Shown here piece by piece: positions 1 through 49,134 of a stretch of 49,134 bases of DNA (its first letter is position 1; every line of letters starts with the position of its first letter). The stretch covers positions 1 through 49,134 of the forward strand of contig JAZDKB010000032.1 in NCBI GenBank assembly GCA_043803405.1, given 5' to 3'. This DNA is from Spirochaetota bacterium (GTDB taxonomy: Bacteria > Spirochaetota > UBA4802 > JAFGDQ01). The notes beneath the pieces were generated by a model. It was not told where the DNA came from, did no database searches, and saw only the letters and a list, made by a program, of their open reading frames with translations. A program made the position numbers and the translations under genes.

Positions 1-108
1 TATCTGGCAATAACAAATATATCCAGAAAATGGACAAGGCCTATTGTCGAATGGGGGCTTGCATTGAATCAGTTTGCTATACATTTTGGAGATAGAGTGA
101 ATATCTAA
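1..108 (+). CDS. IS256-family transposase, C-terminal fragment (5' truncated by window)
   Basis: Frame 1 reads YLAITNISRKWTRPIVEWGLALNQFAIHFGDRVNI*, matching the typical IS256 C-terminus (YLA...KW..P...W..AL.QF.I.F.DR); followed directly by a terminal IR. Confidence 0.9.
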   Translation, partial: YLAITNISRKWTRPIVEWGLALNQFAIHFGDRVNI

Positions 109-139
109 TATCTGTTTACACAAAAAATATTACACTCTC
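1..139 (+). mobile_element. IS256-family element, right end (IRR 112-139)
   Basis: Reverse complement of 112-139 is GAGAGTGTAATATTTTTTGTGTAAACAG, 23/28 identical to the left IR at 48995-49022. Confidence 0.9.
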
Positions 140-140
140 G

Positions 141-537
141 AGGATGCTTCCGTTTTTTGTTGAAACATTAATGCTCTGTCGGAAAACCGATGTGTTCTAA
201 CGGAAAACACATCGGTTCTGGTTAAAACATTTATGCTCTGACAAAGAACACTATGGTTTTGCTGTAAAACATATATGTTTTATCAAAGAACATTATGGTT
301 TTAATGCAGAACATATTGGTCCTGGCCAAAACATATGTATTCTGACAAAGAACATAATGGTTCTGCAATAAAACAATTTGGATTTAGCGGTAATCCATAT
401 GTTTTGCATACAATACATGATCGTTTTGCCGGGAATCATGCTGGTTTTTTAATTAAGCATTTGCGTTTTAGTGGAGAACTGTTAGGTTTTAAAGTAAAGA
501 AGATCGGATTTATAGAGGTGCGAGTTGGGATTAGGTT
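141..537. repeat. Degenerate tandem array, 21-bp period, about 18 units, unit ARAAC-N6-GTTYT-N5
   Basis: The C of the AAC half-site recurs at 166,187,208,228,249,270,291,312,332,353,374,395,416,437,458,479; example unit AGAAC ATAATG GTTCT GCAAT (349-369). Confidence 0.9.
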
Positions 538-639: not shown

Positions 640-1419
640 ATGGAAATAAAAAAGTTATTACTTTGCTTGCTACTTTTTTTATTTGTTAGCTGTGTAACTA
701 TAGCTAAAATTCCTTATGAAAAAGATGCCTCAATAATCGGGATGACGGTTTGGCTTGATAAATTTCCTTTTAGCATGTATCCGACTTCAGTTTTTTTTGT
801 AAAAGTAAACGATAATGAAAACTTTTTAAATGGAAATGAAATTATAAAAACCAATTATTCATATGGTGAACGGGTCTATTTATTAAATCCGAAACCTGGA
901 AAATATTATGCAGTGGCAGCATATGAAAAAACAACGAATCAATCCGGTAAAGTGACCATGACTGATTACACGAATTACTATTTCCCTGTCAAATTAATTG
1001 AACTTACTGAAGCAAATATAAAAAATAATGAAGCAGTTTATCTTGGGCATTATACGGTAGATGTTCCATTTAGATGGTCATATAGTGGCATTAATAAACC
1101 GGATGAAGCTCAATTTTATTATTGTAAAAAATTACAACCAAATAAATTAGAATGGACAGCCGAAGGTTGTTGTTTGGAAGGATGTATGGCCTTTATTAGT
1201 AGAAAACGGGAAAGCGCCCTTGCTGTTAATATTAAAGAAATAAAAAAGGATCTTAAATCGGAAAGTATATTTTGGGAAAAGACCAGGCTTTGTTTTGCTG
1301 GAAATTCTAATACAAGTTATGACAAAGAGAGTATAGAAGCAAACAAAGGCTGGATTGAATTGATAGACAGGAAAATCCAGCAATTAAAATCAAAAGAAAA
1401 AAATATTGAATTAAAATAG
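640..1419 (+). CDS. Hypothetical lipoprotein
   Basis: ATG at 640 follows AGGAG; signal peptide MEIKKLLLCLLLFLFVSC ends in a lipobox Cys; upstream TTG at 547 is unlikely. Confidence 0.75.
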   Translation: MEIKKLLLCLLLFLFVSCVTIAKIPYEKDASIIGMTVWLDKFPFSMYPTSVFFVKVNDNENFLNGNEIIKTNYSYGERVYLLNPKPGKYYAVAAYEKTTNQSGKVTMTDYTNYYFPVKLIELTEANIKNNEAVYLGHYTVDVPFRWSYSGINKPDEAQFYYCKKLQPNKLEWTAEGCCLEGCMAFISRKRESALAVNIKEIKKDLKSESIFWEKTRLCFAGNSNTSYDKESIEANKGWIELIDRKIQQLKSKEKNIELK

Positions 1420-4719: not shown

Positions 4720-4998
4720 GTGGAAATTATATTTGAATGGGATGAAGACAAAGCAACGATGAATCTAATAAAACACAAAGTAAGTTTTAATGAAGGTAAA
4801 ACTATTTTCAATGACCCATTTTTAATTACGTTCCCGGATAATACCGGTTATGAATTTGAAGAACGATTTATTAATATAGGACTTTCGGCAAAGGGCAAAG
4901 TTCTGGTTTTAATTCATACCGAAAGACAAGGAAGAATACGTATAATAAGCTGCAGAAAAGTTACAGCACATGAAAGGAAATACTATGAAGAAGAATAA
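4720..4998 (+). CDS. brnT: BrnT family ribonuclease toxin (DUF497)
   Basis: FEWDEDK...NLIKHKVSF, EERF..IG, RIRIISCRK.T..ERK.Y. Confidence 0.92.
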   Translation: MEIIFEWDEDKATMNLIKHKVSFNEGKTIFNDPFLITFPDNTGYEFEERFINIGLSAKGKVLVLIHTERQGRIRIISCRKVTAHERKYYEEE

Positions 4999-5281
4999 AT
5001 CCTCTGATTCATTAAAAATAGAAGAGATGAAACCCGAATATAACTTCTCCAAAATGAAAGGTGCTGTGCGGGGCAAATATTATAAATCATACAGAGATGG
5101 ACATAAGGTTGTGATCCGTAAAACAGACGGGACTGAATCTGTTCAATATTTTAAACTTGAGGACGGTTCAGTTATGCTTGAGCCGGACGTAAGAGATTAT
5201 TTCCCTGATTCAGAATCTGTTAACAAAGCTCTCAGGTCGCTGATTGAAATAATACCGCAAAAAAGAAATCACAGAAAATAA
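4985..5281 (+). CDS. Cognate antitoxin, BrnA-like
   Basis: Overlaps the brnT end; EMKPEYNFS..GAVRGKYY and LEPDV...FPDSESVNKALRSLI motifs typical of BrnT partners. Confidence 0.78.
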   Translation: MKKNKSSDSLKIEEMKPEYNFSKMKGAVRGKYYKSYRDGHKVVIRKTDGTESVQYFKLEDGSVMLEPDVRDYFPDSESVNKALRSLIEIIPQKRNHRK

Positions 5282-48315: not shown

Positions 48316-48795
48316 ATGGCACAGAAAAATATGGTGTCTGTAAGTTTTTCGGAAACAGATATAAGGGACATAAATAACGCAATTGCGGTTCTGAAAAACA
48401 CTCTTCTGCCGAAGCTTAAAGAGCTTAAGCCGGAAGAAAAAAAGAACTACCCGCTTATGGGAGACAAATCAATAGCATTTGTCCAGAAGGCCCTTGAATA
48501 TTGCGGCTATAATGAGGAGCTTACCCCGAAATTTTTTGATGCAGATGAATTCACCAGGGATTTCAAGGCAGTTGAAGTAATGCGCAATTTCCGGGCTCCT
48601 TTGACACAGATATCCAATATGCTTATGGATACCATGTGTCTTGCAGGCACCGATTCATTCTCTGCTGCCCTTATGTTTTACAATTCGGTTAAAATAGCGC
48701 GAAAAGCGAATATCCCGAAATCCCAGACTATTCACGACGAGCTTGCTAAAAGGTTCCCGGGTAAAGGAGGCGATCCGGATTCGGAAGAGAAGTAA
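48316..48795 (+). CDS. Conserved-type all-helical hypothetical protein (MGDKS..FV.KA motif)
   Basis: GAGG RBS; L.PEEKK.YP.MGDKSIAFVQKALEY, DT...AG.D....AL.FY..VK, EL..RF pattern, which I recognise from memory as a widespread uncharacterised family. Confidence 0.8.
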   Translation: MAQKNMVSVSFSETDIRDINNAIAVLKNTLLPKLKELKPEEKKNYPLMGDKSIAFVQKALEYCGYNEELTPKFFDADEFTRDFKAVEVMRNFRAPLTQISNMLMDTMCLAGTDSFSAALMFYNSVKIARKANIPKSQTIHDELAKRFPGKGGDPDSEEK

Positions 48796-48854
48796 AAAAA
48801 ATTTTCTGATGTATGATAATTCTCTCAAATATACCATAAAAAACTCCTAGTATA

Positions 48855-48895
48855 GAGCAGGAGCGCCGGCTTTAAACAGCCGGCGTTTCTGTTTT
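48855..48895 (+). terminator. Intrinsic terminator after the 159-aa gene
   Basis: CGCCGGCT-TTAAAC-AGCCGGCG followed by TTTCTGTTTT. Confidence 0.75.
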
Positions 48896-48994
48896 AAAAG
48901 GCCATGTTCCCTGATTATGCCTGAAAATTTCCATCCAGAACAGGAAAGTTGCTATTCCGAACTGCAAATTTCCCATACAGCCTCTCGACATTGG
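48895..48994. repeat. Start of a degenerate 21-bp-period array cut by IS256
   Basis: Units begin at 48895, 48916, 48937 (AGAAC AGGAAA GTTGC TATTC), 48958 (CGAAC TGCAAA TTTCC CATAC) and 48979 (partial). Confidence 0.55.
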
Positions 48995-49134
48995 GAGAGT
49001 GTAAAAAAGATTGTGTAAACAGCCATAGAATAAATAATTGAAGACAGAGGAGAAGAAAATGGCTGAAGGAAAAGAAATAGTAGAAGAACTGTTAAAGCAG
49101 ATAGATTTTAAGAATTTAACAGTAAATCAGATAA
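48995..49134 (+). mobile_element. IS256-family element, left end (IRL 48995-49022)
   Basis: GAGAGTGTAAAAAAGATTGTGTAAACAG, complementary to 112-139; transposase start follows. Confidence 0.88.
49059..49134 (+). CDS. IS256-family transposase, N-terminal fragment (truncated by window)
   Basis: GAGGAG RBS then MAEGKEIVEELLKQIDFKNLTVNQI..., inside the IRL. Confidence 0.8.
   Translation, partial: MAEGKEIVEELLKQIDFKNLTVNQI

Follow-up and report, generated by a model that had tools for sequence, protein, structure and literature searches.

What, if anything, reads a non-coding tandem array whose unit is as long as two helical turns of DNA? This question is raised by 17 dyad-symmetric units of the type ARAAC-N6-GTTYT-N5, with a period of 21 bp and no strand assigned, at positions 162..511 of the window, as we call the entire analysed stretch of 49,134 nucleotides, which is a contig of a Spirochaetota genome designated G000 in the following. 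A first-pass annotation had stated that the array matches no named element. No name indeed applies to it, but repeats of comparable design are in print together with the idea of a polymerising protein: Subirana and Messeguer described constant-length bacterial repeats of 20-21 nt which are non-coding, species-specific, and fixed in period but variable in sequence (PMC8161180, PMC6749651), and the accessible text of one of these papers relates the length to two helical turns, proposes a protein that polymerises on the repeats, and treats the function of repeats with a fixed 21-nt length and free sequence as an open question (PMC8161180). The arrays of G000 share the fixed period, the presence of many families per genome, and the non-coding nature; they also have features for which the accessible text of PMC8161180 holds no counterpart, as the string 'palindrom' does not occur in it and neither empty sites nor partner genes nor targeting by an IS are mentioned. 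Fixed-length 21-nt repeats are already known; partner genes of the arrays were not found in print, and a literature search returned no description of a gene-plus-array module; the lists of repeats published by Elhai (2008) and Subirana (2020) may include arrays of this kind. G000 provides named candidates for the reader, namely small helical genes linked to arrays, one of them with a confidently predicted symmetric dimer, and these genes make the puzzle of fixed-length bacterial repeats testable by a binding assay.

Boundaries and structure of the array

The window begins with the right end of an IS256 element (1..139, forward strand), which consists of the last transposase codons and the terminal inverted repeat and lies outside the array. 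Ends identical to this one are present on seven other contig ends, and a full copy on contig C36 has a length of 1316 bp and encodes a transposase of 406 aa (NF033543, E=1.8e-124). The IS256 end is followed by the 8-bp target-site duplication GAGGATGC (140..147, forward strand), which also precedes the left end of the element on contig C3, about 30 bases past the stop codon of miaB (TIGR01574 above cut-off). By this shared duplication, which ties the contig to the end of C3, where miaB ends, the sequence upstream of the IS256 copy could be traced. Behind miaB, the insertion split a terminator-like hairpin, of which positions 145..158 (forward strand) represent the 3' arm and the T-run; in the rebuilt pre-insertion site, a stem of 6 bp plus 5 bp (-9.0 kcal/mol) precedes the T-run, and we infer that this hairpin is a transcription terminator. 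About 18 units had been counted in the first-pass annotation, the first one at 141. This unit is composed of the IS256 duplication (140-147) and the hairpin arm with its T-run and agrees with the other units at 11 of 20 bases; therefore, the array proper begins at 162 and comprises the 17 units up to 511.

The units start at 162, 183, 204, 224, 245, 266, 287, 308, 328, 349, 370, 391, 412, 433, 454, 475, and 496, those at 204 and 308 being the two 20-bp units noticed before. Over positions 141-537, lag 21 gives an autocorrelation of 0.463 (z=8.2) and lag 42 one of 0.485 (z=9.2), values reached by none of 1000 dinucleotide shuffles (0/1000), and in agreement with this, Tandem Repeats Finder (TRF) returned periods of 21 and 42 within 180-365. 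The exact pattern ARAAC-N6-GTTYT is present in 7 of the 17 units and its match weakens beyond 370, which bears out the described decay of conservation towards 537. Super-periods of 42 and 62-63 reflect block duplication. The dyad symmetry is a property of the consensus and absent from single units. The intervening bases, which had been taken to be variable, differ between units, but the 6-nt spacers are constrained and AT-rich in most of them.

The array does not encode a protein. Stop codons occur in every one of the six registers of the re-phased units (11, 1, 4, 4, 8, and 3 per 112 codons), and no register is more open than expected from a column-shuffle null (P=0.6), in agreement with the earlier argument against a heptad-repeat protein. 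Nor is the array a CRISPR locus. CRISPR loci are built from identical repeats that alternate with unique spacers, each some 30 nt long or longer, whereas the array consists of degenerate 5-bp half-sites with gaps of 5-6 nt, and a search of positions 1-2600 against Rfam gave three chance-level matches, all far under the gathering scores.

Genomic neighbourhood and orphan status

The array lies between miaB and a gene for a 259-aa protein with a lipoprotein-like N-terminus (640..1419, forward strand), and a serine acetyltransferase gene is a further neighbour. The 259-aa protein has no match in Pfam or NCBIfam and homologues in 26 of 121 relatives of the class. None of the 11 fetched loci of these homologues has an upstream array (z of at least 6); the gene was rejected as array partner and is regarded as a bystander. 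Behind miaB, no array was found in relatives (0/5), and the motif itself was found neither in the 121 class relatives nor in the rest of G000. Because of these results the array is classified as an orphan. It has no sibling in G000 either (best profile correlation 0.41-0.44), a DNA search of 60 relatives with positions 139-1500 did not find an orthologous locus, and a motif scan of viral contigs gave no match.

Plasmid iterons and parC-type centromeres are single loci beside rep or par genes, and such genes are not among the neighbours of the array. The centromere-like role that had been considered is unlikely in the form of a single centromere, as G000 contains 36 non-coding arrays of unrelated sequence. 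At 4720-5281 of the window, a gene for a BrnT-family toxin and the 103-aa ORF behind it are likely a type II toxin-antitoxin pair.

Period-21 arrays in G000 and other genomes

A scan of G000 gave 60 matches at period 21, 36 of them non-coding, compared to 0-6 non-coding matches at each of the other periods from 15 to 30. Three arrays judged coding by eye were dropped, leaving 33, and the inclusion of two weaker arrays located at IS sites brought the number to 35, which fall into about 25 sequence families. Dyad symmetry is present in 17 of the 33 non-coding arrays and in 4 of 24 coding ones, and many arrays are GC-rich.

While the motif of the 162..511 array was not found in the 121 class relatives, its exact three-unit pattern was found at 74 loci of GTDB genomes (72 without the duplicates L052 and L067) that belong to several phyla distant from the source. 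Seven of these 72 look-alike arrays are situated upstream of a gene for a helical protein of about 209 aa with an fn3 domain and one downstream of a gene for a 156-aa helical protein of the A2 family (see below); at the other 64 loci, no partner was present in such a position within 2.5 kb. The free positions of the 162..511 array are no nearer to the fn3-linked arrays than to the others (p=0.46). A few look-alikes sit within long ORFs. Stretches of 16-19 nt common to the array and four Bacteroidota arrays were disregarded, because the search pattern itself determines 10 of their bases. Closer to the source, two arrays of the related genome G001 resemble families of G000 (r=0.77 and 0.78).

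One Spirochaetaceae metagenome-assembled genome (L007-L076, JAITHR01) provides many look-alikes, nearly all with the spacer ATCAAT, and these are a recent expansion of the motif family. Many look-alike loci are from Nostocales. Elhai is said to have characterised cyanobacterial small dispersed repeats such as SDR5 as very short mobile modules. SDR5, described as inserting precisely into HIP1 sites (PMC4390886), may be comparable to the look-alike arrays as a mobile repeat module.

Small helical genes beside the arrays

Five small genes of a helical type flank arrays in G000, and three further partner genes were identified by homology, including P0021 in the window and a fragment on contig C18. 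Outside G000, an array adjoins partner homologues at 14 of 17 loci (A2 family 9/11, C2 family 4/5, C9 1/1), a link being defined as a period-21/42 array within 600-700 bp of the gene; the array rate at random intergenic positions of G000 is 2-3%. The linked arrays are 85-440 bp away from their genes, downstream of A2 genes and on either side of C2 genes. Those adjacent to A2 genes are unrelated in sequence to one another, and a sequence-specific reader would therefore have to co-evolve with them.

The A2 family comprises 4423 clusters at 50% identity, has no name in Pfam or NCBIfam, and is not basic overall (median pI 5.9). Neither A2 members nor the other partners gave a Pfam match above cut-off, no transposase family match was obtained for the partner proteins, no DNA-binding fold was recognised in them, and the partner families do not align with one another by profile (hhalign probability under 1%). 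With the queries used, no partner gene of the helical-plus-fn3 type was detected in G000, and the reader of the 162..511 array may be gone from this genome.

P0021 (48316..48795, forward strand) encodes a protein of 159 aa without a Pfam or NCBIfam family. Downstream of it a second period-21 array of a different sequence family starts (48870..48994, no strand assigned), which is cut by the left end of a second IS256 copy (48995..49134, forward strand) and continues at the end of contig C27, the duplication GACATTGG being common to both. Positions 48316-48994 and the C27 end are one intact gene-plus-array module split by IS256. The modelled protein is all-helical (pLDDT 88.9) with one helix of 55 residues. 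As a homodimer it is predicted with a score of 0.80, the best of three controls reaching 0.00; the mark for this score was attained by 20 of 30 solved pairs and by 1 of 23 single chains. The dimer runs have 93% or more of contacts in common, with a pLDDT of at least 88, and the predicted dimer is symmetric. Across 210 sequences, K58 and R146 are conserved at 90% or more, K47 at 88%, and Y122 at 97%. Both modelled partners, P0021 and the N-terminal half of the fn3-type protein, are predicted to share the order helix, loop, helix run of about 50 residues, and short helix. A Foldseek search with the P0021 model gave no match at E<=0.001, its best VIA match had a Z of 5.5 over 45 residues (rmsd 3.1), none of its neighbours in the ESM Atlas is named, and the fold matches of the fn3-type model are due to the fn3 domain; these searches do not demonstrate a new fold.

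The C9 partner of 243 aa looks like a doubled module, judging from 29% identity between its halves (E=0.002). It is flanked by arrays on both sides (L095:2808-3536, corresponding to C9:161307-162038 of G000), the downstream one alternating two 21-mers (period 42). A further module consists of the array at C33:40917-41239 of G000 upstream of the C2-type helical gene C30:236-718 (L102, L180), which was split by IS256 with the duplication AGAAAATG.

A putative lattice of protein binding sites

Palindromic half-sites may be read in the transcript or in the DNA duplex. The proposal that a transcript of the array is cut into small hairpins is not borne out by the sequence, since pairing within the units of the 162..511 array (0.608) equals that across units (0.599). 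The same holds for 57 other arrays, with 0.659 within units versus 0.661 after permutation, and the R/Y pairs between the arms (A-T 234, G-T 164, A-C 148, G-C 98) are distributed as under independence. The lack of covariation between the arms favours a two-fold symmetric reader of duplex DNA over selected hairpins.

We give an even chance to the reading that the 162..511 array is an orphan lattice in which a helical protein dimer binds duplex DNA, with two turns per unit. Dimers of a small all-helical protein would line up on the array two helical turns apart, each dimer reading one 21-bp unit, and the size of the dimer could set the period while the sequence drifts. Orphan copies would be dispersed and mostly neutral where they sit; the 162..511 array would have no role specific to miaB or to the 259-aa gene and is itself probably a bystander. 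If this reading is correct, proteins that coat DNA would gain a widespread new class, and insertion sequences a novel type of landing site. Cooperative binding or polymerisation of a dimeric protein had been suggested in the first-pass annotation on account of the phasing of the half-sites, and the position of arrays beside small helical genes, one of them for a predicted symmetric dimer, lends indirect support to the idea of such putative binding. A tested model for the proposed mechanism is provided by KfrA of plasmid RA3, described as an alpha-helical dimer which binds a repetitive site beside its own gene (PMC7783346), with the difference that the dimer is a predicted one in our case. The KfrA operator consists of five 9-bp repeats at one plasmid promoter, whereas the arrays are 21-bp chromosomal lattices in dozens of places, and none of 59 A2 members gave a KfrA family match, although a remote kinship is conceivable.

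Dispersal of the arrays and insertion of IS256

Orphan siblings of gene-linked arrays are 68-78% identical to them, and in BLAST comparisons of 12 pairs including the flanks the matches lie within or at the arrays only; common flanks, a leader, a tail, or terminal inverted repeats were found in none of these pairs. BrickBuilt of Porphyromonas gingivalis, a MITE described as a dispersed intergenic tandem array with a unit of 23 nt, has a conserved leader and tail and inverted-repeat ends (PMC4596501), in contrast to the sibling arrays, which have no shared flanks.

Six junctions were compared with relatives, few or none of which were comparable for C9:120k, C6, and C35. The selA-selB gap holds no array in G002 (21 bp), G004 (2 bp), or G005 and G006 (233-264 bp); with an array, it measures 255 bp in G000 and 442 bp in G001, and the two arrays are unrelated (profile correlation 0.21). 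Two species belonging to the same genus thus carry 21-bp arrays of unrelated sequence in this gap (L139:1428-1682, L152). Two further junctions are devoid of an array in all comparable relatives (4/4 and 2/2). G002, the assembly of which is 93% complete, has no match to three partner queries and no array in 800 kb sampled of about 3.3 Mb, with 7.2 expected at the density of G000; G001, which has partners, contains two arrays in 666 kb, a difference from G002 that is not significant (p=0.21).

IS256 ends could be paired by their duplications at 9-10 sites, counted as 10. Four of these are located within 300 bp of an array at a z of at least 6 and five at a z of at least 5; excluding the site in this window, the numbers are 3/9 (p about 1e-3) and 4/9 (p about 1e-4) against an intergenic null of 2-3%. 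Likewise, 6 of 16 IS-bearing contig ends, two of which are the two sides of one site, score at a z of at least 5, compared to 2 of 92 other ends, both coding. This bias may reflect either targeting or tolerated insertion. New here are the presence of IS256 at or in arrays at 4-5 of 10 sites and the selA-selB junction, which is empty in two relatives and occupied by unrelated arrays in two species.

The C2 end and the C4 start of G000 carry two IS256 left ends with a tandem duplication of the first 20-30 bases, for which no exactly matching target duplication was found. GC-rich hairpin repeats (CCCCCT...AGGGGG type) are present at the same junctions as 21-bp arrays and also at several ends of contigs (L143:2025-2478, L156, L157).

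A dispersal of this kind is reminiscent of REP/BIME-like selfish repeats; an HUH transposase would then mobilise the arrays in the form of single-stranded hairpins, with the helical genes as passengers. REP, REPIN, and BIME elements with RAYT are described as palindromic intergenic repeats, gene-linked as well as dispersed, and IS-associated (PMC3116915, PMC1525189), the IS256-family element ISRm5 being located at REPs in 5 of 7 sites (PMC1525189); the overall layout of gene-linked copies, orphan siblings, and IS targeting is alike. A near-perfect array of another family adjoins C7:56247-56567, the one strong Y1 transposase gene (Y1_Tnp) in G000, no such gene being present beside 162..511, and the whole 162..511 array folds better than shuffled sequences (z=-3.9 and -6.0). 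Better folding, however, is a property of any dyad-symmetric repeat. Moreover, the genes linked to our arrays are helical and have no transposase match, the 21-bp lattice is free of gaps, the arms show no hairpin covariation within units, and siblings resemble each other inside the array without common ends. We therefore regard this explanation as unlikely. The array behind the Y1 gene, which is of the IS200 type, follows it directly and is probably young (L107, C7:56247-56951).

An extension of the lattice reading to all arrays would be that small helical dimers, which would make up a large superfamily including A2, act as a molecular ruler, coating DNA in 21-bp steps, and need no transposase of their own either to read arrays or to seed new ones at gene ends, which would make the array a self-spreading lattice of fixed pitch and changing sequence and a landing pad for IS256. 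This view is doubtful at present.

RNA ligands, DNA curvature, and slippage as alternatives

The RNA of the arrays, whole or in 21-nt pieces, might be the ligand of the partner protein, in analogy to the RNA-repeat logic of type III antitoxin arrays. A similar logic is that of VIPR, described as a 5-nt GGY/NN repeat with a RAMP protein and an RNA guide (bioRxiv 10.64898/2026.04.26.720920), which resembles the arrays in that a short tandem repeat, with positions that are fixed and others that vary, accompanies a single gene; the GGY/NN unit is absent here, and the partner models are helical or helical plus fn3 rather than of the RAMP fold. The distance of 85-440 bp between gene and array and the transcription of other fixed-length repeats (PMC8161180) are in line with an RNA ligand, as is an excess of G-T over A-C pairs (11 versus 3) on the gene strand of the fn3-linked arrays, although a single array supplies 7 of the 11. 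The arms do not covary, however, arrays lie upstream of their partner in some cases and downstream in other cases, even inside the C2 family, and RNA does not account for a period of two DNA turns, which makes this alternative quite unlikely.

Another alternative is intrinsically curved DNA that has no dedicated partner and either influences the promoter of the gene downstream or binds a general nucleoid protein. The AA/TT dinucleotides of the 162..511 array are phased at 10.5 bp with an amplitude of 9.1 versus 2.4 +/- 1.3, reached by 0 of 500 shuffles, and at 10.4-10.5 bp the array ranks among the top 0.04% of windows of the genome; it is therefore predicted to be curved, and the top 5% includes 12 of the 33 non-coding G000 arrays. 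The bending suggested in the first-pass annotation is thus predicted for this locus, but every repeat of period 21 contributes power at 10.5 bp, GC-rich arrays are numerous, and the 10.5-bp excess is weak across the array families (p=0.24). An effect on the downstream gene is difficult to reconcile with the 0/11 homologue loci with an array, no sigma-70-like promoter was found in positions 100-700, and the link between genes and arrays would be left unexplained, so that curvature by itself is a rather improbable explanation. A neutral slippage minisatellite or a ruined heptad-repeat reading frame, suggested by the register with a single stop in 112 codons, the few look-alikes inside long ORFs, and the super-periods of 42 and 62-63, is largely disfavoured and very improbable, since this register does not exceed the null in openness (P=0.6), slippage gives no ground for the excess of period 21 (36 arrays) over each of the other periods between 15 and 30 (no more than 6), and both the dyad symmetry and the gene link are left unexplained.
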